Part shown: piece by piece, positions 466 to 38,966 of the stretch | Layout of the letters: each line of letters starts with the position of its first letter | Numbering within the stretch: position 1 is the first letter of the stretch | From: Podarcis bocagei | Taxonomy: Eukaryota | DNA: 64,000 bases | NCBI GenBank assembly: GCA_964188305.1 | Contig: OZ076896.1 | Direction: 5' to 3' (one strand) | Position numbers and translations under genes: made by a program | Notes under the pieces: model-generated | Database searches by the model: none | What the model was told of the DNA's origin: nothing | What the model saw: only the letters and a program-made list of their open reading frames with translations

Positions 466-729
466 AATGACCGCTCCCCGCTTAAAATGGGGGGCGCCCT
501 TTGCGTGGACGCGTGCAGCCCCTAGATCTGGAGCGGCTCCAACAGCATAGGCTTGGCTTTGCCTTCCCTCAGGTGGGATACCTGGAGGTCTCCACCTACC
601 TCAGTCAGTTGTCCAATCCCACCTGGGGGAAGCGTTGCCAAGGAGACCAGGCCAGGTAGGGGAGGGATTACCTGCCCACACAATAGAGGGAGGATCTTAC
701 CTAGGAATCCACACTTGGCTCCAGAGCTT
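466..729 (+). repeat. Ngaro split direct repeat A1
   Basis: Identical by eye to 7751-8014 (aatgaccgctcccc...ccagagctt). Confidence 0.95.
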
Positions 730-1164
730 ATCCAGGAAGGACGTTGCTGGACTTCCTCGCTCCAAAAGGTAAGCCTGGGCCTTTGCCCCCCCCCCCACTA
801 GAGGGATCCCAAGGGATAACGGGGGGTAATGGACTGCTGGATACCCCTTCAAAAGGGGATCCTTTTTCTTAGGTGGGCCCTGATGCCCCGGGGTGTTGAG
901 TGGTGGCACGGGGGCCCCTCTAGCTGCCCCCCCATGCCTGCGGGGGCGTGTGGGCCGCGGGGGGGGGGGAGGCAACGCCACGCGCGGCCCCTTCCCTTCC
1001 CCCGCCAGGCCTGGCGGCCCTGGGGTGCGGCGGGTGGTGGAGGGGGGGTCCCCGGTCCCCTCCCAGGGCCTTGGTGGCCCCCAGACGGCCTTTTTTTAGG
1101 CCGCAGGGAGGCCCGCGGCGTTTCGTGAGGCCTTACTAGGCCTCGGGGGGGGCTCCTCCGTGTC

Positions 1165-2030
1165 CCCCAGCCCTGGAGCCTCCCCCGGGCGGCGGGGGCC
1201 TTCCCGCCGCCCCCGTGATCGCCGGGGGGGCCGCGGGCCCCGCCGCGCGGCCTCCCCCGGCTCCGGAGGGCTGCCTGGGCCGCAGGGAGGCCTGGCTGGG
1301 CCTCGGCGAGGCCTTGCCGCATTTTGCGGCCTAGCCGGGCCTCCGGCGGCCTTGGGGCCTTTGCTGGGCGGCGGGGGCCTTCCCGCCGCCCCCGTGATCG
1401 CCGGGGGGGCCGCGGGCCCCGCCACGCGGCCTCCCCCGGCTCCGGAGGGCTGCCTGGGCCGCAGGGAGGCCTGGCTGGGCCTCGGCGAGGCCTTGCCGCA
1501 TTTTGCGGCCTAGCCGGGCCTCCGGCGGCCCTGGGGCCTTTCCTGGGCGGCGGGGGCCTTCCCGCCGCCCCCGTGATCGCCGGGGGGGGCCCCGGGCCCC
1601 GCCACGCGACCTCCCCCGGCTCCGGAGGGCTGCCTGGGCCGCAGGGAGGCCTGGCTGGGCCTCGGCGAGGCCTTACCGCATTTTGCGGCCTAGCCGGGCC
1701 TCCGGTGGCCCTGGAGCTTCTCCTGGGTGGTGGGGGCCTTCCCGCCACACCCACAATCGCCGGGGTGGCGGCGCGGGCTGCGGCACGTGCCCTCCCCGGT
1801 TCCGGGAGGCCTAACCGGGCCTCGGAAGGGCTCTGCTGAATAGTGCGGCCTAGCTGGGCCTACAGCGGCTTTGGAGCCTCCCCTGGGTGGCGGGGGCCTT
1901 CCTGCCACCCCCCCATTCCGTGGGGGGGCTGCGGGCCACACCGCATGGCCTTCCCCCACCTTTGGTCAGCCTTAAAGGCCGCAGGGAGGTCCTGCCGCCT
2001 CGCATGGCCTACACCAGGCCTCTGGCGACC
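1165..2030 (+). repeat. GC/CpG-rich tandem repeat, ~179-bp unit, ~4.5-5 copies, in the 5' region of the Ngaro element
   Basis: The ttcccgccgcccccgtgatcgcc motif recurs at 1201, 1380, 1559 and 1739 (degenerate), with a further degenerate copy near 1898. Confidence 0.9.
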
Positions 2031-2643
2031 CTGGAACCTCCCCTGGGGGGGGACCTCTGCAGCCGCTGGGCATACCCGCCTCCCCCCCCAGATGGCCCCA
2101 GGGGACAGTGTGTGCCTCTGCTTGCCCCCCCCATAAACCGTGGTGGGGCCTGCTTAGTGGTGGCCCCAAGTCTGCAGACATTTCAATGGCGATCGCATGG
2201 CAGCAGCCATTGCGCCGGTGGCTACATGGCGGCGGCCATCCTGGATCTGGCTGCAGAGGCGGTCATGCTTCGGTGGTCCTTAGGTGCACCTATGGCCTCA
2301 TCAGGTACGTATTGGTTTTGCATCTCACTATCATAGCTTGCCAGCAGGTGCAGTGGACAGCAGGCATCGCGCTCATTATCGACGAGGGGAGACTACCCAT
2401 GGACCTCAACTGAAATCTGTGCAGTGATTTTCTAAACTATTGCTTGTTTTATTTTGCAGCCTTTAGTAGCGATCCCTGCTGCGACTCAGTCCTTGCCTTA
2501 TCTCCTCCCCTCCCATTATTTGAACCCTTACCTTTATCACTAGTGTGTGTTTGCAAATTGATGGCGGGCATTTTCTACCAATCATTGCCCCCCCCCTTGT
2601 TCTACGGATTCCCTAGCATACCCTACTCTATTAGCCCCACACC

Positions 2644-4100
2644 ATGCCACCAAAGCGTCAGGCTGCTTCTCTGCCCCGCATTAGAAGGGGCACTGTAAGG
2701 GGCGCGTCCACCAAGCCTGCCCAGATACAGGCCACTGGACAGCGTAAGGCGCGTGCGACCAGGGAGGAGCAGCCCAAGAAGACCGCGCCCAAGAGGGAAG
2801 CAGCACCTAGAGGGTCTTCTGGGTCCATAAGCCCACTAGCCATGGCGAGTCACGCCGGCAAGGGCTCGGCTGCCAAGCCGAGATGTACAGAGAGCTCCTC
2901 CTCTACCCGCTCCTGCCTTAGTAGCAGTCCCTCGCACCCGGTGCGTGGAGACAGTAAGGATAGGACCATTGCCCGGCTGAGGCGCCGCCTGGAGCAGCGG
3001 GATTCGCGCACAGGGCGCTCTGGGTCACCTCACAGCCGCAGGCAAGGGCGCAGTAGCAGCTCCGCTGACCGCCGTGTCCAGGAAGGCGCATCACGCTCAT
3101 CATCCCTAAGTCGCACAGATCGCGTCATCGTGGGAGGAAACACCGCAAATCCAGGAGGAGAGCCACAAGTCCAAGAGGGACTCTTCTGGATCATCTAGTT
3201 CCTCAGGTAGGTCCAGCTCCACTGATAGTACACGGGGGGGAGCATCAAAGGCTATTGGGTTACAGGCCCCCACGCCCCAGGGCTGCCGCACTGGGTCTGG
3301 CGGTGCCGCAACCGGAGGCACAGGCGTGAACATGGTGCTATTGCGCTGTGTGGCGAGGAGGGCATTGACTCCAGAGGTAGCATTAGGAAATCCAACTTCA
3401 AAAGAACTGACCAGCCCCCAGGCCTTCGCCTGCGCGAGAAGTTGCGGGAACGCGTCCTTAATGGGGAGTTTGTGGATTTGTTTGATCTGCTATCCCCTGC
3501 CTCTTCGACATGCCTAAAATCTAAATCCGCCAAGCAGAGGAAAAAAGATAAAAAAGTGAGTGTTGAGCGTACCTTTCGTAATTGGCTCACTGCATACACC
3601 ACTTACATGGGTATTATAGTCGCTAGTTATCCTGACAGGGGTTGGCACCTGACCAACTACCTACTTATCATCCTAAAGGCTGAAGCCATGTCTGGGGGGG
3701 GGAGGCGGCACTTGCCTATGACCAGGCATTCAGGGAGCGGGCGGCAGGGGACGACACAGCTAGATGGGATATCGAAGATGATGACGTGTGGTCTGAGTTG
3801 GTTGCCCCATTCTTCAAGAAAGGGTCTGACAATGTGAAACAGTCCAAATACCAATCCAAGGCCCCCAAGAGATCTTGCTGGGAGTATAACAATGGTTCCT
3901 GCTTCAGAGAAAAATGCCGATTTGCTCATGAATGCGAGCGCTGTAGTGGATCTCACCCACCACAAAATGTTTTTTGGGGTAGAAGTTTTTTTTCAAGGCT
4001 CCCGTGGATCAGGCGCAGGCACATCTCAAGACAAAGAGAGGCCGGTGCCTCTACAGGCTCCTCTGGCACACAGCAAAGCAAAAACAATGCCCGCAAATAG
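2644..4100 (+). pseudogene. gag-like ORF1 of Ngaro element, frameshifted
   Basis: Basic Ser/Arg-rich N-terminus (MPPKRQ...), conserved middle block (LNGEFVDLFDLL...FRNWLTAYTTYMGII...YP) and C-terminal zinc fingers CWEYNNGSCFREKCRFAHECERCSGSHP; split over several frames. Confidence 0.85.
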
Positions 4101-5437
4101 TGTTCTCCTTTCCCTAGCCCCCTCACCCGTATCTATATCAGCAATGCTGCCTTTTTACTCCAGTACCCCAATAAAGAGGCAGCAAAATACTTTGAGGAGG
4201 GCTCTAGGGAAGGTTTCCACATCCCAGTGGTAGTCACCCCTTCATGCACCAATCCCCCCAACCAAAAGTCTGTCTGAGATATGCCACACATTGCTGAGAA
4301 GAAGATCACCAAAGAACGTTTGCTGGGGCGAGTGGCAGGTCCCTTCTCAGAACCTCCATTTCCCACCCTCATAGTGTCTCCACCAGGTATCGTGCCTAAG
4401 AAGGCCCCAGGCGAGTTTCAATTAATACACAACCTTTCTTACCCAAAGGGTGGGTCAGTAAATGATGCCAATCCTCAAGAACAATGCTCAGTCAAATATG
4501 CATCTCTTGATCAGGCAATCAGGCTGGTTAGGGAGTGCGGCTCGGGCACGCTCACGGCAAAATGTGACATCGAATCGGCCTTCCGTTTGTTACCAGTCCA
4601 CCCCAGGGACTTCTGGTTGCCAGGTTTCAAATCATATCTGGGTATTGAACTGGATTCTGTCAGCCAAACCTATTTCCTGCCCCTAGCCGAACTCGCCACG
4701 TTGAGGGAATTGGTTACCACCACGATGGCCCAGAAAACGACTACGTTGCGTCAGGTCCAGACACTCTTAGGACACCTCTATTTTGAAGGCAGGGTTATCT
4801 CGCCCGGTTGCGCCTTTTGCGCACGCCTAGCCCGTCTCACGGCTGGTGGTGTTGCCCCCCACCACCACATCAGGGTCACTCATACCATAAGGGAGGACCT
4901 CAAAATGTGGCTGACCTTCCTGAAAAGTTACAATGGGGTATCCTTTTGGCGAGATTGGCCGCTGTTTAAGGAGCAGCTACATGTGCACTCTGACGCCTCT
5001 GGTCGCTCTGGCTTCGGTGTCTACCTCAGGGGTCACTGGCATGCGCAGCCTTGGCCGACATCTTGGCACGCAGAGGGCATTACACGCGATTTAACTTTTC
5101 TTGAGTTCTTTCCAATCCTAGTAGCTCTCCGGGTTTGGGGGACCTTCTCAAGGACACCAAGGTGTGCTTCTGGTCAGACAACCAGGCGGTGGTAAGAATC
5201 ATTGCGAAGCAATCTGCAAAATCCAACAGGGTAATTCGCGTGCTCCGTCTCTTCGTGCTGGAATGTCTGAAAGGTAACATCACCTTTTCCGCGCGGTTCA
5301 TCCCGGGCCTCAATAACGACATTGCAGATGCCCTGTCTCGCTTTCAGATGGAGTGTTTTGGTGACCTAGCACCCGAGGCCAATCAACTCCCAGAAGCCTT
5401 TCCGGAGGACCTCTGGGAACTTGGTCGAGAGAAGTGA
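4088..5437 (+). pseudogene. reverse transcriptase / RNase H of Ngaro element, RT core deleted, frameshifts and a stop
   Basis: RT N-half (GRVAGPF..SPPGIVPKK..LIHNLSYP..KCDIESAFRLLPVHP) joins directly to YLGIELDS with no YLDD. RNase H motifs SDAS, LEFFPI, SDNQAV, NDIADALSR are present, with a frameshift near 5140. Confidence 0.92.
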
Positions 5438-5439
5438 CA

Positions 5440-6332
5440 GCAGGGGTACTGAGCCCCCTTGCACCATCAACATTGCAATCCTACACCGGAGCATGGTCCC
5501 AATTCAAGGGGTTCAGAGATAAGTTTGGTTTACGACGCAGACGTGCAGCTAAGGAGTATGACGTTCTAATAGTTCACCTAAAGCGTAGAGGCATGGCCCC
5601 TTAAGACAATCAGCCTGCACAAGGCTGCTTTCTCATACTTCAGCAACTGTTTTTGGCTCCCAGACCCCTCTTAACAATTTCCACGTAAGGAAGCTTTTTC
5701 AGGGTGGCGTCACTCCCACCCGCCCATTCCAGATAAGAGGAGGACAGTAACCATTGAGATCCTCCGGCTGATATCGGATGTGCTCCCCAGTATCTGCTGG
5801 TCCAACTATGAGGTTAGGCTATTCAGGGCGGCCTTCTCCCTGGCCTTCCTTGGTGCGCTCCGTATCGGAGAGTGCGTTGGGGGCACATTGTCATCTCATC
5901 GCAGGGGCTTGTCTGTGGCTGATATCAACCCTGACAGGCGCATGCTACAAGTCAAAATCCGAGCCTCCAAAACCGATCAACTAGGTAAGGGTACCATGCC
6001 AAGTCTAGCCCCCTCCCCACACACTGGACCATGCCTGGTCGTGGACACGCAAATTCTTGAAGGTACGTCCTCCAGGACCAGGCCCTCCCATTCATGCATC
6101 AGGCCGCCCCATGACCCATTGCCAATTTGTTTCAATATTGCGTAAGGCCATCCATGCTTGTGTAGGCGACCCGGCACAATTTTCTGGGCATTCCTTTTGT
6201 ATCGGTGCAGCAACCATGGCAGCTGCAAGCGGCCTCCCAGCAGAACACATAAAAGCAATGGGGCGGTGGCGTTCAGCTGCCTTCAAAGGCTACATTAGAT
6301 ACAACCAGCAGACACTGACAGATACCATATAA
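5440..6332 (+). pseudogene. tyrosine recombinase of Ngaro element, disrupted
   Basis: LAPSTLQSY..AW N-terminus, AFLGALRIGE (catalytic R), SKTDQ (K), GHSFCIGAAT (HxxR with R changed to C), GRWRS..FKGYIR (W, Y); frameshifts and stops. Confidence 0.92.
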
Positions 6333-6345
6333 TCCTTTCTTTCAG

Positions 6346-7309
6346 GCTCAACCCCCAAACTTCGGCCACAGCATTGTGCATTGGGCGGCCATCCATGCCA
6401 CCACTGGTCCAGGCGGAGAACATCTGGGTCTGCAGCCAAAAATCTCCATTGCCTGGTTCGGACAACGGGGAAGGCGTTGGGATCCCCTGCTCCCTCGGTC
6501 GCGTCATGAACTTGCGTTCCACGGTGGGATGCCCTGCTCCCTCGGTTGCGTCATGAACTTGCGTTCCACGGTGGGATGCCCTGCTCCCTCAGTTGCGTCA
6601 TGAACTTGCGTTCCACGGTGGGAAGCCCTGCTCCCTCGGTTGCGTCACGAACTTGCGTTCCACGGTGGGATGCCCTGCTCCCTCAGTTGCGTCACGAACT
6701 TGCGTTCCATGGTGGGATGCCCTGCTCCCTCGGTTGCGTCATGAACTTGCGTTCCACGGTGGGATGCCCTGCTCCCTCAGTTGCGTCATGAACTTGCGTT
6801 CCACGGTGGGAAGCCCTGCTCCCTCGGTTGCGTCACGAACCTGCGTTCCACGGTGGGATGCCCTGCTCCCTCAGTTGCGTCACGGACTTGCGTTCTGCCA
6901 CCCGCCAAGCGCGGTTGTGCTCCACCTCTGCGAAAATGACTTGGTTGTGCACAAAAGCATAATTTTGATCAAAACAGCGATCGCAGACCTGGAAAGCGTG
7001 CACGCCACTCACCCCAATATCACGATTTTCTGGTACGAACCTCTACCACGCTTGCATTGGCGTGGCAACATCAAACCCACTAGACTTAATTACACTGTGG
7101 AAAAAATCAATAGGGCAGTGCGCTCTGCAACCACTCGCATGGGAGGTCAGGTCATGAAACACCCCAACATTAAAGTTTACATGCAGGAGCTATTTCAGCC
7201 CGATGGCGTGCACCTATCGGACCTGGGTAATGAGCGTTGGCTGAGCGACATCAGGCATGGCCTGATTGATTGGTGGAGGATGGCAAAGGCGTCTTTCAGA
7301 TGTTGGTAG
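6346..7309 (+). pseudogene. SGNH/GDSL hydrolase ORF of Ngaro element, interrupted by a minisatellite
   Basis: Block I FGHSIVHWA, block II WFGQRG, block III VLHLCEND, block V DGVHL. SGNH hydrolase ORFs are known from vertebrate Ngaro-like elements. Confidence 0.85.
6478..6896 (+). repeat. 47-bp minisatellite, ~9 copies, with a 4-unit (188 bp) higher-order repeat
   Basis: Unit tgggatgccctgctccctcggttgcgtcatgaacttgcgttccacgg; the variant pattern of units 2-5 is repeated in units 6-9. Confidence 0.95.
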
Positions 7310-7342
7310 TCTTGGCGGCGAGACCGCAATTGCGGTCTCGGG

Positions 7343-7752
7343 TGGCGGTATCAGGCCTTGGGCGGAATCCTTTTGTCCATCTTCCTCTTGCGGCGGCGAT
7401 ACCAGGGTTCCCCGTTAAAGGGGTTTTCTGAAGGGAGGCTTTGGCCGTACACCGAAAGGTCGTCATTGCTCCCTCCTGCGGCGGCGGCGTTACAGGGGCG
7501 GCCATCTCTGCTTGAACATATGTTCTCCAGAGCCGGCCCATCCCCCACACACACACTGGATAACCCTGATGCTCCCTAGGTCCCCGGCTGGGGACCGGGG
7601 AGGGAGAACGCCCAATGCCTGAGCCAAGGTCTACCCACATTTGAAATTTAATAAAGTTGTGGCCAATTTAATCCCATAGCACGTTGTCTTGAGTCGTTAT
7701 TCACATGACGGGGGGACCGTGCAGGATCTGGGGACTCCGCCTGTCCACGCAA
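7343..7752 (+). repeat. Ngaro split direct repeat B1 (AATAAA at 7650-7655)
   Basis: Matches 8202-8611 with two substitutions seen. Confidence 0.95.
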
Positions 7753-8014
7753 TGACCGCTCCCCGCTTAAAATGGGGGGCGCCCTTTGCGTGGACGCGTG
7801 CAGCCCCTAGATCTGGAGCGGCTCCAACAGCATAGGCTTGGCTTTGCCTTCCCTCAGGTGGGATACCTGGAGGTCTCCACCTACCTCAGTCAGTTGTCCA
7901 ATCCCACCTGGGGGAAGCGTTGCCAAGGAGACCAGGCCAGGTAGGGGAGGGATTACCTGCCCACACAATAGAGGGAGGATCTTACCTAGGAATCCACACT
8001 TGGCTCCAGAGCTT
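7751..8014 (+). repeat. Ngaro split direct repeat A2
   Basis: Copy of 466-729, directly abutting B1 through the shared AA. Confidence 0.95.
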
Positions 8015-8106
8015 CTCCCACCCTACCCACCCTCAGTTAAGGTCTTATTTTGCAGGTTAACTTTTCTTCACAGGTTTTGCAGGTTAACTTTACTTCACAG
8101 GTATGC

Positions 8107-8200
8107 GGGCGCTGCTACGTTAAGGTCGCTGTTAAAGGGCCGGAAAGGAATTTCCCTGCATTGGCAGGTTTCGCCTTTCCCGTAGCAAAACGTCACAACT
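8107..8200 (+). ncRNA. candidate structured cis-RNA element (ENE-like U-rich internal loop) in the A2-B2 spacer
   Basis: tgctacg/cgtagca, ggaaagg/cctttcc and cctgc/gcagg helices flank UUUC/UUUC; covarying homologues lie at 11760-11880(-), 28073-28193(+), 38448-38563(-) and, partially, 46596-46684(-). Confidence 0.6.
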
Positions 8201-8201
8201 T

Positions 8202-8611
8202 TGGCGGTATCAGGCCTTGGGCGGAATCCTTTTGTCCATCTTCCTCTTGCGGCGGCGATACCAGGGTTCCCCGTTAAAGGGGTTTTCTGAAGGGAGGCTT
8301 TGGCCGTACACCGAAAGGTCGTCATTGCTCCCTCCTGCGGCGGCGGCGTTACAGGGGCGGCCATCTCTGCTTGAACATATGTTCTCCAGAGCCGGCCCAT
8401 CCCCCCCACACACACTGGATAACCCTGATGCTCCCTAGGTCCCCGGCTGGGGACCGGGGAGGGAGAACGCCCAATGCCTGAGCCAAGGTCTACCCACATT
8501 TGAAATTTAATAAAGTTGTGGCCAATTTAATCCCATAGCACGTTGTCTTGAGTCGTTATTCACATGATGGGGGGACCGTGCAGGATCTGGGGACTCCGCC
8601 TGTCCACGCAA
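8202..8611 (+). repeat. Ngaro split direct repeat B2 (AATAAA at 8509-8514)
   Basis: Copy of 7343-7752; ends cacgcAA. Confidence 0.95.
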
Positions 8612-11324: not shown

Positions 11325-12142
11325 TTTGCGTGTTGAGTTCCACAGTGCCACCCCCCAAATAATTACACACTTCACACATCAATTTTTGTTTAAGGTTTTT
11401 TGGCATAAATTTTGGCCACAACTTTATTCAAAATACAAAAAATTGTGAGTGGTTGCTTAGGCATTGGTTATGACTATCTGTCCTGGCCCTCAAGGACAGA
11501 GCTGGCCCTTCCGGACTCCACCGGAAGCCAGCGTGGGAAACAAGTATTGGATAGAAGGGAGGCTGGGAAACAGGCCCTCACTTCTGACCCTCATGTTCCG
11601 GTGGGGCTTGCACGGCCCAAGTCTGGCTCCACGGACAAGGACAAAAGAATGGCAAGCCCCTGGATTCCTTTAACGGAATTCCCTTTCCGCATCATTTGGA
11701 GGGGTAGGCACTTACCCCTCCAAGCACCAATTAACCAATGCCTAACCGCCAACCTTACAAGTTGTGACGATTTGCTACGCAGTAGGCAAAAACCAAATGG
11801 CACCAGCCAATCAGCCAGATGGCAAAATTCCTACCGTGCCCCCGCACCAAGGCGAACGACACCATGACAGGCATAGCAAGGTCAAGCAATCAACTTAAAT
11901 AAAAAACCCCCCTATTGGAGGGAGGGCGGGTGATCCGATGCAAAACGGCCAAGAGGACGTCCCTACGTCTGGCCCTTCTATTTATAACTTCTGACTCCTC
12001 CTCCAAATTGGTAACAATCAATTTTCCCCCAGCAACCCGATTAACCCTAAAGGCCAGGGTTGCAGATTAATTTGCCTAGTCATGGCTGGGCGGCCTGTTC
12101 CCCAACCGCAACACGTGCTCTCTGTTAGGGAGAACACGCTTT
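11325..12142 (-). mobile_element. solo A-spacer-B unit of a Ngaro-related family
   Basis: On the minus strand it starts AAAgcgtgttctccc and ends cacgcAAA; contains TATAAATA, cacccgccctccct, the ENE-like motif and aataaagttgtggcc; homologous end-to-end to 27820-28647. Confidence 0.8.
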
Positions 12143-14652
12143 AATGTAAACTCTGGGTTACATATTGTAACGCATAACATTCCTTTCCATTTGGTTATCA
12201 CATTATTGTGTGACTTAAAAAAACAACAACAACCCAAACTCTTTAATATTTGTGACACTCACTGGTGATGGGCTGGATTTGGATGGGAGGCCAGGATATA
12301 TTATTTATTAATTATCCTTCCTCTTACTTCAGTAAGATTAGCATCTAGTTTAGAAGAGTTCAAAATGTACATCATCCTTTGCAGCTTTAACATGGAAACT
12401 TGGGTGGTCAAAGCTGTGTAGCTTTCTATAATTATCCAGGATGCCTTTGGCAGACTGGATCTTCTCCTTTTTTTATCCCTCTAAATAAAATAACAACACA
12501 GAAGTCTGTAATGTAAGAATATAAAAATATTGTTTACTTACATAAAGTTGCAGACACAATTCAAGCAGAAAGTGGTGAAATATGTCAGGCAAAATATACT
12601 TCTAGATTACAAAATACACGGCTTAGATAAAAGATGGTGCCTGTGCTCAGGAGCTCACAGAACCTGCATGATGATAAAGAGACTGTTCCTCAGATAGGAG
12701 GAGGTAATAAGGAGGTAATCTTCCTACCTGGGCAAGCAGAGGAAGTGACCTCACAGTGTGCCCTGTAGGAATCTGCAGGGAACTCCATGTGTTGCTCACC
12801 TAGCAAATGTGTAATTTTGTATTTTGACTGGAGCACCATTTTTCCATAAGTGGTGGGTAGCCAGGTGTGCAATGTCACCCTGCTTTGCCACTCTGATCTA
12901 ACGAAAGGTCCTGTCTCTATTCTGATATAGCTTAGTAATAATTTAAAAAAAATGATAAATTTAATAGGAAGATTGGTTGGACACCAGAGACTACCCAAAA
13001 AATACTACCCAAAAAATAGTAAGCAGTGACCATAAAGGGATGGTGACAGTTACTTTAATAGTTCACCCGAAGATTCTAACATTGCAAATATTTGTGTTTT
13101 CAGGCATTTCCACATAATCTACATGAATGCATTATCTACATAAACGATGTAAATAAAACAAAAAGAAAGAAACCCAGACCAGTGATTGCATGCACGCAAG
13201 ATTCTTGCATGTTGCCTTGTTGCTTAACTTATTGGTCATATTTAAGTAGCACATATATCATCACATTTCTGTAATCTGTCAGTGTGCAACAACCGTACAA
13301 GGCTGGTTATGGTTATTATTCTAATGTTGAAACTCTGTGCGTGTGTGCATGAGAGAAGCATGACTAAGGCCTCTCTCAATAGTGATTTCATAATACAAGA
13401 ATATTTGTAGTTCAGTCTCCTTGATGCTACATATACCAGTAGTCAAAACTGATGTACTTTTTAGACCAATGTAATGATTTATTTCTGAAGTGGTAAATAT
13501 ATTTTTAGAGTTTTCTTTTACCCTTCCAATTACTCTTATCTCAAACCACCTAAGGTAAATTTCTAATGTTTAAAAATATACAACGGTTTGCATAAAAAGT
13601 AAGGAAAGTAACCTTGAATTAAATACCTCAGGGGTAATATAATCTCAAGTAAATGACTCCAGAATGTCAGCTCTGTGGAAAGTGACTGCAGAGAACATTT
13701 TGTGTGAGCGTACGTGAATATGTGTGTGCAACATAAAGCACATTGGGGAGAACAATTCAGTGTTAATGACAATACTGTGCCCTTGTGTTTACCTTCCTTT
13801 GGAAAGAAAATGGGATGCCCAACTTTATCTTGCTCAGAAAATGTCTTCAGGCTTCCTTGCTGTTTTTGCTCTTAGTTAAAATTGTTAGTTATGTACCTCA
13901 GTCAAATAAATCTGTATGTTCTTAACTGTTTGTTTTTTTTAATTAAAAAAAAAATGCAACCCCCGGAATCTATTACAGTTGTGTTTACTAGGCTTTCAAG
14001 AAAGAGTGGATCCATACCTGGTTCACATATTACACAGAAGCAACAAAATGTGTTATCATAGATCTCATTTGCATTTAGTGCTGAGTTTAGGTGTGCCAAA
14101 GAGCTCCATGTAGGGAACTTGCTGCTGTGTGCCCAGACTCAGCAAAATTTCTTTCCTTTTGTATCAGTGAAGGGGGAGCAATCCTGCTTAGCGCTGGGTC
14201 CCCACTTTGTGCAGAGCTTTAAAGGCTCCTGACAACCAGACAGTGGTGGGCCTACATTTGGGGGCCCCTGAAGCTTGAACTGTTATGGGGGGGGGGAGCT
14301 TCACAACCAGCAACAAGGTCTGGGTAACCACTGCTATCAGTGAGTTTGTATCAGAACAGATTAACACAAATTCTACATGAGATTGCATTTTTGGGTATCC
14401 ACCTAAGTACATTCCTCTAAGGTCTTGGCCTGTGTTAAAAGGGGAGACAAAATACATTAGCCAACTTATCACAGCGCTCCACACTTACAACATCTGTGCT
14501 ACTGATTCTCAACCTTGGGACTGGTGAAATATATACAACCCTCTCCCCCACAACTGTACACGCGTGATTCAATTTGGGTCTACTAGACCCACAATTTTTA
14601 AGCAATGTGGACGAAAGTTGCTTCTGGGGACCCTCCAGGATTAGGGGCCCTG

Positions 14653-16545
14653 GCCTGACACTAGTACGAAAAGGGTGTTGGAGATAATCCAACAATTTGG
14701 CCAGGTAGCTGGATTTAAACTGAACAAACAAAAAACTAAAGTCTTAGAAAAAAATCTAACAGCCACGGAGAAGGAGAAATTTCAAGAAGAGACAGGATTG
14801 ACACTGGTTAAGAAGGTGAAATACCTAGGGGTTTATTTGACATCAAAAAATCTGAATTTGTATAAGGACAACTATGAAAAATGCTGGTCAGAAATTAAAA
14901 AAGATCTAGAAATATGGTCAAATTTGAAATTGTCAATGTTAGGCCGAATTGCAGTGATTAAGATGAATGTATTGCCTAGAATGTTATTTTTGTTTCAAGC
15001 CTTGCAGATTCTTGACAAGATGGATTGTTTCAAGAGGTGGCAGAAAGATATTTCGAAATTTGTCTGGCAGGGCAAAAAGCCCAGAATTAAATTTAAAATA
15101 CTGACAGATGCTAAAGAAAGAGAGGGATTTGCCCTGCCGGACTTAAAATTGTACTATGAAGCAGCAGCGTTTTGCTGGCTGAAAGAGTGGATGCTCCTCG
15201 AGAACACAGACATTTTGGATTTGGAAGGTTTCAATAATCCATTTGGTTGGCATGCATATTTATGGTACGATAAAATCAAGCTGCATAGGGCCTTTAAAAA
15301 CCATATTGTCAGAAAAGCATTGTTTAATGTTTGGATAAGATATAAAGATCTGTTGGAAAACAAAACCCCTAGATGGGTGTCTCCCGTGGAGGCTAAGGCA
15401 GTGAAGAAAATATGGAGGTCGGATGGCCGAAGTATTGGGAAATTTTGGAACAGGAGGGAGATAAACTGAAATTACAAAGTTATGAGAAAATGAAACATAA
15501 AGTACAAAATTGGTTTCAATATCATCAAATAATGGAGTTTTTTAAACAGGATAGGAAAATTGGCTTTCAGGTGGAAAAATCAAAATTAGAGACTGAATTG
15601 TTAGAACCCAATACTAAGAATTTATCAAGAATGTATAACTTGCTGCTGAAATGGAATACACAAGATGAAACAGTTAAATCGGCTATGATTAAGTGGGCAC
15701 AGGACATTGGTCATAACATTATGTTTGCTGACTGGGAGTGGTTGTGGAACACCGGTATTAAATTTACGGCATGTAATGCCTTAAAGGAAAACATTATGAA
15801 AATGACTTACAGGTGGTACATGACCCCAGTCAAGCTAGCAAAGATCTATCATTTGCCTGATAACAAGTGTTGGAAATGTAAAGAGACTGAAGGTACTTTT
15901 TATCACCTCTGGTGGACATGCCCGAAGATTAAGGCTTTCTGGGAAATGATATATAATGAAATGAAAAAGGTACTTAAATGTACTTTCCTTAAAAAACCAG
16001 AGGCCTTCCTCTTGGGCATTGTCGGCCAATTGGTGTCAAAGAGGGATAGAACTTTTTTTATGTATGCTACAACAGCAGCAAGAATACTTATCGCAAAGTA
16101 TTGGAAGACACAAGATCTACCCACTCTGGAAGAATGGCAGATGAAAGTGATGGACTATATGACATTGGCTGAGATGACTGGCAGAATCCGTGATCAGGGA
16201 AAAGAGACGGCGGAAGAAGAATGGAAGAAATTTAAAACTTATCTTAAGGACTACTACAAACTTGAGGAATGCTAGAATGTCGAGGTTCTCAGAAAAAAAA
16301 GGGTTACAGTGATATAAGATTAGATTAAAGAAAAGACTAAGACGATAGAGGTTGGAAAGAAAGATTTAGAAGTTGCTAAAAAAGTATGGACAATGGGATG
16401 CAGAAAGGGGGGGTATGGGGAAGTCCTGGAAAAGAGGTTTATGAAAAAATGTTATGAAATTATACGTGTTTGTATGTCTTTTTATGTGTTTGTTTGTCTT
16501 TAAAAAATTTTGTAAAACCAATAAAAAAATTCTATATAAAAAAAA
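14653..16545 (+). mobile_element. 5'-truncated L1-clade LINE with 3' UTR, poly(A) and 16-bp TSD
   Basis: TSD aggattaggggccctg at 14637-14652 and 16546-16561; AATAAA and A-tail at the 3' end; ORF2 homology. Confidence 0.93.
14675..16275 (+). pseudogene. L1 ORF2 C-terminal half (RT thumb to CCHC zinc knuckle), one frameshift near 15410
   Basis: KYLGVYLT, GRIAVIKMNVLPRMLFLF, FALPDLKLYY, CWKCKETEGTFYHLWWTC. Confidence 0.92.
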
Positions 16546-27819: not shown

Positions 27820-28647
27820 AAAGTGTGTTCTCCCTCATGGAGAGCACAGGTTGCGGGCGGGGCTGACAAGACACCTCACTGTTACTAGGCAAATGGTTTG
27901 GCCATCCTTTAAGCAGGGGCGGGCTGTTACTGGGGAAATCTAGATGTTGCCATTTGTTGATTGACAGCCCTATTTGTTAAATACAATGCTCGCAGCGAGG
28001 AACTTCCTCTTTTCGCTGCTTACTTCGGATCACCCGCCCTCCCTTCCCTAATTTTAGGCTGTTTGCTTGACCTTGCTATGCATGTCATGGGGTCGTCTGC
28101 TTTGGGGCAGGGGCCTGGTAGGATTTTTGTCCATTTGGCTGATTAGTGTGTGCCACTTGGTTTTTGCCTACTGCGTAGCAAATCGTCACAACTTGTAAGG
28201 TTTGCGGTTAGGCATTGGTCTTGGAATTGGTTGGTGGAGGGGTATGGATTCGGCTATGCCTGCCCCTCCAAAATGCTGCTGCAGCTGCTGCTTCAAGGGT
28301 TTTCCATTAAAGGAACCAGGGGCTCCCCATGCTTTTGTCCGAAACCCCCTGGCAAGGGGCTAGGGCCACGCAAGCCCCTGGGAGCATTCTGGGGAGAGGT
28401 GAGGCATGGTTCCCAGTCCCATCTCTCTCCCCAAGTGACTTACCCTTGCTGACTTCACGGGGGGGTGTGAATGTCAGAGCTGTCCCCGGGCAGGGTCAGT
28501 TAGTGCTACCAATGCCTAAGCAACCACTCACATTGCTGTAATTTGAATAAAGTTGTGGCCCAAATTATGCCAAAAACCTTAAACAAAAATTAAGTGTCAA
28601 TTGTGTTTTTCTTTGGGGGGGGTGTCTTGGGGACCTCGCCGCGCAAA
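27820..28647 (+). mobile_element. solo A-spacer-B unit of a Ngaro-related family
   Basis: Starts AAAgtgtgttctccc, ends gcgcAAA; contains the ENE-like motif (28073-28193) and aataaagttgtggcc at ~28546. Confidence 0.8.
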
Positions 28648-38046: not shown

Positions 38047-38966
38047 ATTGTGTGGCAAGGTCCCGAAGCCTCCCCACTGTTGGAATAAAGACACTAGACA
38101 CAAGTATTTTAGGTTAATGGGCTAAAAACAGCCACAACTTTATTGGTTACAGAATGTGAGTGGTATTGGCTTAGGCACTGGAACCAAACCGACTATATCT
38201 TACTCCTGCCTGCCTGCAGGAAGTCTCAGAAGGGTTAATCACCAGTAGGGGGAGCCCTGCCGATGCTCATAAACTAGGAACTTCCCCAGGGTTGTGCCAT
38301 GGCCCTAGCCCCCACCTGGACTTTGGACGGGGCCATCCCCCCCCCTAGATTCCTTTAACAGAATACCCTTGAAATAGCAGGGGTAGGTGATGGCCACTAC
38401 CTCCCCTCACCTCCAACCAAATACTCCAATGCCTAACCACCTTACAAAGTTGTGACTATTTGCTACAGGGTAGGCAAAAAACCAAGTGGCTGGTGCCAAT
38501 TTGCCAAGTGGAAAAAAATTCCTACCAGGCCCCTTAACGGCGACCAACCGAGGTCCATAGCAAGGTCAGATGATTAAGTGCCTAAACATGGGGAGGGAGA
38601 ACTGTGAGAGTGGGAAACAGAAGAAAAAGCCTGCATATGGCCAGAAGCAGGGAGGGTGTCGAAAGCCCAGGCCTGTGCAAAACAAGGCTTTGTTTGCTGG
38701 CACTGCTTCTCCAAAGGCCAAAGGCAGATTTATTGTCGATTCTGGAGCCACGAAGCACGTCTGTGGAAATCAACCCTGTTTATTTCCAGCCAGAAGCCGA
38801 AAGGGGTGATTGGTCGGCCTAGTGAGTGACGCAGCTGGGGACTCCCTATGACGCTGGGGCTAACCACGCCCCCCTCACACGGGTCGAGCTCATGACCGGC
38901 CCACAACGCCATTTCCCCAGGGAAGGGAAATGGCTCTCCCATCAGCTTCAATCAGCATGTCTGATT
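38047..38966 (-). mobile_element. solo A-spacer-B unit of a Ngaro-related family, carrying a copia fragment
   Basis: ATT core at both ends; minus-strand end ccacacAAT; ENE-like motif at 38448-38563; aataaagttgtggc. Confidence 0.7.
38597..38790 (+). pseudogene. Ty1/copia gag-protease junction fragment
   Basis: ...KALFA...GRFIVDSGATKHVCGNQPCLF matches the copia aspartic protease motif (W/F)IxDSGATxHxC. Confidence 0.7.

Follow-up and report, generated by a model that had tools for sequence, protein, structure and literature searches.

A predicted long-range helix and its flank-specific extensions at the 3' end of Ngaro-like retrotransposons in Podarcis bocagei

The element, its relatives and their copies

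The window analysed here, a stretch of 64,000 nucleotides from Podarcis bocagei (assembly GCA_964188305.1, contig OZ076896.1), contains one retrotransposon with split direct repeats and three shorter units of other families:

466..8611, + strand: Ngaro-type tyrosine-recombinase retrotransposon, A1-ORFs-B1-A2-spacer-B2, with direct repeats and a weak GDSL hydrolase ORF
466..733, + strand: A1 repeat, identical to A2 at 267/268 positions
7343..7752, + strand: B1 repeat, with helix arms at 7351-7364/7609-7622 and AATAAA at 7650-7655
7751..8018, + strand: A2 repeat, direct repeat of A1
8202..8611, + strand: B2 repeat, direct repeat identical to B1
11326..12142, - strand: solo A-spacer-B unit of a different family, approximate ends
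27820..28646, + strand: solo A-spacer-B unit of a different family, approximate ends
38048..38590, - strand: spacer-B unit of a different family, A part unrecognised, approximate ends

Judged from its repeats and reading frames, the layout of the element is Ngaro-like (order DIRS), with the split direct repeats arranged as A1...B1A2B2 and a spacer of about 180 nt between A2 and B2. The accessible text of PMC9210276 ascribes to Ngaro-like elements split direct repeats (A1-B1-A2-B2) and an RT, a YR and then an SGNH/GDSL hydrolase. The GDSL-like hydrolase ORF of the window element, which ends in a stop at 7307-7309, gives a weak Pfam match (0.0011), and the element's own RT and YR fragments give none. 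The domain order RT, YR, hydrolase is seen in the related element L205 (RVT_1, 1.8e-13; YR N-terminal, 0.016; GDSL, 1.2e-4), and a Phage_integrase match (6e-5) was obtained in the related copy L063; no methyltransferase domain was matched by Pfam in the scanned ORFs of the window element and related copies. The Rfam search at E up to 1 returned 12 matches, none of them within the element or the solo units, and no tRNA genes were found in the window. In the genome, 9,401 occurrences of a 15-nt word at the poly(A) signal were counted, against 3 of its control, and solo AB units have already been described for Ngaro-like retrotransposons (PMC8547959, in excerpt).

Several other repeats accompany these sequences. 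A 47-nt tandem array precedes the hydrolase domain (6428-6944), GC-rich repeats of 90/179 nt occupy the 5' region of the element (1045-2050), and a fragment of a LINE-type RT lies at 14645-16275. A gypsy element is inserted within one Ngaro copy (L063), and copia-type ORFs stand directly upstream of the RT of another (L205).

Many elements extend no further than B1. This is so for 14 of 30 picked by pattern (L121-L150), and a second B was found in none of the 20 older loci picked by protein (L184-L203). Elements ending at B1 are the counterpart of the solo A-spacer-B units and were probably produced by recombination between B1 and B2. In one family group (within L123-L149) three A at the B1/A2 junction are flanked by a short inverted repeat, the form that a recombinase site would be expected to take. 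Permuted elements, which would reflect integration via an inner B-A junction, were absent from 10 upstream stretches, and among 23 B2-type copies checked for permutation repeated sequence followed B in one. Most of the listed hydrolase matches, belonging to at least two young families, lie on contig G000:C19, which is possibly a non-recombining chromosome.

The long-range helix P1 and the domain it closes

The following features were recognised within B2:

8201..8205 with 8482-8486, + strand: short outer stem, separated from P1 by a 4-nt bulge
8210..8223, + strand: P1 5' arm, partner of 8468-8481
8269..8282, + strand: conserved hairpin with a 6-nt loop
8468..8481, + strand: P1 3' arm, partner of 8210-8223
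8509..8514, + strand: AATAAA of B2, with tail addition expected near 8538-8543 from other families

A helix closing the B repeat had been described in four copies of the window by the first-pass annotation, and all four were recovered in place. The helix of B2, here called P1, comprises 13 Watson-Crick pairs out of 14 and one previously unmentioned C-U mismatch; those at 28208-28219/28508-28519 and 11457-11470/11732-11745 are perfect over 12 and 14 bp, respectively, and that at 38171-38182/38425-38436 contains one G-U on the sense strand of its element. This G-U had been taken to fix the strand, which it does not, the G-U and A-C cells of P1 standing at 14 to 9. When each of the four copies was compared with 200 dinucleotide shuffles, 0, 0, 0 and 1 of them equalled the observed helix. 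The C-U mismatch is found in 9 of 9 tabulated copies of the window family, and an older relative (L186) carries the matched base.

The P1 survey drew 99 units carrying the motif from the window and the beginning of one contig; the two arms could be placed in 76 of them. In 73 of these 76 copies, 26-31 nt separate the end of the 3' arm from AATAAA; the enclosed domain, put at about 260-300 nt, has a core span of 188-319 nt (median 271). The helix was also said to have a different sequence in the solo units, a description that had to be abandoned: the core has mostly the same sequence in all units and varies at 6 of 13 positions. The helix is kept across diverged families with compensatory changes. 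Using a tree built without the arms, a minimum of 14 independent Watson-Crick switches was counted at six of the 13 positions, one position using all four Watson-Crick pairs, and the remaining seven never switch. RNAalifold found P1 de novo in 20 hand-picked units, and its pairing probability exceeds 0.5 in 61/67 B2-type copies. Among 20 loci chosen by hydrolase protein similarity and not by the B motif, P1 beat all 30 shuffles in 15, one of which passed through a neighbouring stretch and not the true arm. All the covariation evidence comes from one genome; a metagenome scan with a single protein query returned one short unrelated match only.

For the whole domain, 72 B2-type units were assembled, of which seven were dropped by a filter for unrecognisable arms and three by hand (one mis-anchored, one with a deletion and one with an insertion), leaving 62. 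Over this set the 42 named pairs have 95.3% of their cells paired, against 31-52% in slid controls, and 13 of the 42 show double changes; the shuffle control for this structure ignores relatedness, and the structure itself was drawn from the same sequences. Across all 42 tested pairs there are 178 G-U cells versus 46 A-C cells, with five family-level wobbles, CpG decay explaining some of both. The fold z-score is -2.85 for the sense strand and -2.09 for the antisense strand. In both B copies the interior combines a conserved architecture and a conserved hairpin loop with variable peripheral stems. The small conserved motif reported inside the domain is indeed present in all four window copies, and it corresponds to the 6-nt loop of the hairpin at 8269..8282, the stem of which covaries. 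The P1 domain itself was also considered as the seat of a conserved U-rich loop, a candidate rejected because its U-run is family-specific. P1 is best read as a conserved sense-strand pairing; in B1 and B2 alike it encloses a domain of about 270 nt with several hairpins.

Different pairings at the B1 and B2 flanks

Upstream of B1, two features are specific to that repeat:

7294..7316, + strand: arm X, B1-only, made up of the final codons of the hydrolase ORF and its stop (7307-7309); partner 7623-7646
7319..7340, + strand: B1-only hairpin between arm X and the B1 start, looped out of the X pairing

The partner of arm X is the 22-27 nt before AAUAAA at B1, and the complementarity is family-specific. 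The duplex of the window element is predicted at about -30 kcal/mol versus -12 for shuffled sequence; over 26 distinct pairs from 31 loci the median is -23.7 kcal/mol, compared with -13.4 for shuffled and -17.3 for cross-family pairs, and B2 flanks reach -9.7 kcal/mol by the same measure (n=68). The own partner beats others in 22/26 pairs, and the sense strand beats the antisense strand in 22/26; the extension passed in only 12 of the 20 older protein-picked loci. In two family groups the pairing with arm X extends over half of the hexamer at B1, namely its first half; in the others it ends before the hexamer. The pattern of the B1-only hairpin has 1,127 genome matches versus 0 for the control, with stems that are variable yet still pair.

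Accessibility at the two signals was compared by folding models in 16 elements, a set that includes near-duplicates and comes mostly from one group of families. The 20 nt preceding AAUAAA have lower accessibility at B1 than at B2 in 15/16 elements; for the 8 nt following the hexamer the less accessible copy is B2, also in 15/16. Opening of the hexamer is cheaper at B1 in 11 of the 12 elements computed out of 16; its first half is less open at B1 in only 7/16 and its last three bases in only 3/16. The upstream UGUA-type word, UGUA being a cleavage-factor site, is less open at B1 in only 6/16. Considering that the hexamer opens more easily at B1 and that its last three bases and the UGUA word are rarely less open there, folding supports only part of a weakening of B1, and the direction of a B1/B2 switch is not fixed by these models.

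The flank of B2 is provided by the spacer:

8113..8187, + strand: spacer-only three-way junction with an ENE-like hairpin (predicted fold; RNAalifold; covarying stems)
8142-8148/8174-8180, + strand: lower stem of the ENE-like hairpin, double changes in 4/6 pairs
8149-8154/8169-8173, + strand: U-rich loop of the ENE-like hairpin (predicted fold)
8155-8159/8164-8168, + strand: upper stem of the ENE-like hairpin (predicted fold)
8192..8201, + strand: arm Y, B2-only, complementary to 8513-8522 (the AATAAA end and 8 nt), with one invariant U-G

The B1 flank has neither a U-rich loop nor an arm Y. Since P1 is present in B1 too, where this loop is absent, it cannot exist solely for a triple helix. 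Runs of at least four U on both strands, the length that about four triples would require, occur in 43/60 parsed copies (12 of 72 were unparsed), and the runs range from 2 to 8 across families. Those of the window family are the shortest, with 3 and 3 in the window copy and 2 on the 5' strand in 6/8 family copies. The G-C pairs flanking the loop are near-invariant (57 and 60 of 62), and the lower stem is predicted in only 36/59 copies. No conserved genomic A-rich third strand of the MALAT1 type is seen: an A-rich tract after the signal is found in some families and is absent from the window family.

Arm Y is located five bases downstream of the three-way junction that holds the ENE-like U-rich loop, and its pattern has 5,302 genome matches versus 6 for the control. 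The pairing is predicted in 51/67 copies; within the window family it is predicted in 1/8 (0.06 in the window copy), a local hairpin winning instead. Its 10 pairs are invariant, without a double change. The 3' side was fixed by the search motif that picked the units; a search anchored elsewhere, which excluded C at those places, found it unchanged in 90 of its first 100 matches.

Use of the poly(A) signal is recorded in two processed genomic fragments, L152 and L228, which end in A runs at distances of 24 and 29 nt beyond the hexamer, lack the 3' end of B and are too short to tell B1 from B2. L152 (G000:C13) has a 15-bp target duplication and L228 (G000:C12) only a doubtful 7-bp one; both look like LINE-made retrocopies. 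A looser search for A tails gave 10 places: six A-run expansions in intact B, two unrelated and two of the processed type. Both B1-type and B2-type flanks are present in four raw RNA-read runs from a related organism, and these few reads (18-117 per run) contain no joints, piled ends or A tails. Splice-like words were seen in the window, namely twice-repeated acceptor-like tracts in the family's spacer (8020-8105) and a donor-like word after A1 (768-775), and the same reads hold no spliced joints at such words. A TATA-like word near the 3' end of A (L068:462-470) could allow A2 and the solo units to start a short spacer-B RNA.

The placement of the poly(A) tail beside the U-rich loop, also put forward by the first-pass annotation, stands in part. 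The sense-strand domain loops out, a U-rich loop with covarying stems lies just upstream, the signal is tailed in the two fragments, and the nested helices would bring the tail near. The contact itself, however, needs the outer pairing 8192-8201/8513-8522, which is invariant, shows no covariation and is unpredicted in the window family.

Candidate roles and comparison with known systems

The flank-specific extensions of P1 at B1 and B2 likely control 3'-end formation. The particular device that we favour, in which the first poly(A) site is weakened and the tail is docked at the U-rich loop after the second, is held tentatively, with a probability slightly short of even. DIRS-1 requires an internal region (PMC7192593, in excerpt); by analogy, the element would need read-through of B1 in order to copy the B1-A2 junction and the spacer, and with its two identical poly(A) sites it would thus be in the same position as a retrovirus. 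In retroviruses one of the two is silenced via flanking sequence and RNA structure, according to the accessible part of PMC3694450. At B1, arm X would pair the stretch upstream of AAUAAA and make the site weaker, and at B2 the freer upstream stretch would let the site be used. After cleavage, the spacer arm Y would keep the 3' end next to the U-rich loop; this loop may bind poly(A) as a triple helix, and the genome-length RNA would be stabilised by it. An ENE is reported to stabilise Evade RNA (PMC12501189, in excerpt). The device leaves the conserved interior and the sharp start of B unexplained.

In a rival reading the fold is a replication signal. P1 would lay the 3' part of the RNA on the start of B2 in a primer-like manner, with RT starting at the spacer/B2 border and the hairpin before B1 marking the second-strand start, or else the domain would act as a packaging and RT-loading signal. 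The reading, which we consider rather unlikely, draws on the start of B at exactly TGG in 12/16 elements, where the outer stem sits, on the invariant-looking hairpin loop kept in the domain, and on the 90 of 97 variants separating close relatives that are found in both B1 and B2 (reciprocal pairs counted twice), a joint change implying that each cycle uses a single B as template. For elements of the DIRS order a primer is not known, a 3' hairpin being one suggestion (PMC7192593, in excerpt). Strand displacement in circle formation, however, would presumably homogenise B too, the border is shifted in two elements, the outer stem runs past it in the largest family, and self-priming requires a cut within the duplex. 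An improbable, more specific form makes P1 the missing primer of split-repeat YR retrotransposons: the RNA 3' part, lying on the TGG that starts B2 and kept in place by the spacer arm together with the tail-binding loop, would prime the minus strand at the spacer border, B2 would be rebuilt from B1 in each cycle, and the extension into the ORF end at B1 would block the same reaction.

The cheaper opening of the hexamer at B1 in 11/12 elements and the less open 8 nt past it at B2 in 15/16 would also suit a switch of opposite sense, in which the protein-coding mRNA is polyadenylated efficiently at B1, the B2 signal is masked by arm Y, and genome-length RNA is rare or ends differently. We assign this a low probability, given that the hexamer at B1 has its first half paired with arm X in two family groups and that a U-rich, tail-binding loop found only at B2 fits tailing at B2. 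It is just as doubtful that P1 mainly closes an autonomous protein-binding domain, such as a Gag-binding site or an element for the export of unspliced RNA, to which closeness to poly(A) would be secondary; in both B copies the interior architecture and the loop are conserved and the peripheral stems variable, but the flank-specific extensions would go unexplained and no Rfam match at E up to 1 falls in the region. Arms that work as inverted repeats in DNA, either as protein sites or in a fold of the minus-strand cDNA, would agree with the seven of 13 P1 positions that never switch, with the little strand bias of P1 alone and with the single-stranded cDNA used by DIRS-1 (PMC7192593, in excerpt). 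That the arms are not RNA structure is nevertheless very improbable: pairing is kept while the sequence changes, family-fixed G-U pairs favour the sense strand, and the fold z-score is lower on that strand.

DIRS-order elements are abundant in many vertebrate genomes, and their RNA-end choice and RT priming are described as open questions (PMC7192593, in excerpt). What the present analysis offers is a covariation-backed RNA map of the Ngaro 3' end with two mutually exclusive flank-specific pairings, in which short RNA fragments would allow poly(A) choice, tail protection and priming each to be tested. Should the loop bind the tail, as in the 3'-end device that we prefer, tyrosine-recombinase elements would join those with ENE-type protection, and one genome holds thousands of their solo copies. 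Among the literature titles and abstract openings searched, none described RNA structure in Ngaro repeats or spacer.

P1 and its flanks may represent a variant of known 3'-end devices in an element class for which none was found described in the literature searched, although published survey tables of ENEs could already list such a loop. Tf1-type LTR retrotransposons self-prime from an intramolecular RNA duplex at the repeat border, using the 5' end of the RNA; the candidate considered here would use the RNA's 3' part. Single-domain ENEs (KSHV PAN RNA, Evade/Copia93, and plant and fungal transposon ENEs) are likewise stem-loops with G-C pairs beside a U-rich internal loop; they lie near the 3' end, upstream of the terminal repeat in which the poly(A) signal is found (PMC7583470, PMC12501189, PMC13541005, each in excerpt). 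In contrast to these, the hairpin described here sits in a three-way junction, has a near-invariant AA before the 5' U-run and U-runs of 2 to 8, and a long-range scaffold links the predicted loop to the poly(A) signal. Retroviral poly(A) choice in HIV-1 and foamy virus also distinguishes two identical sites by unique flanks and RNA structure, and in the HTLV-1 Rex-responsive element a large folded domain shortens the distance at the 3' end (PMC3694450, in the part available). Unlike in retroviruses, the looped domain of the Ngaro-like elements lies upstream of AAUAAA and not between the signal and the cleavage region, and both sites are near the 3' end, the first being paired by the end of a coding ORF.
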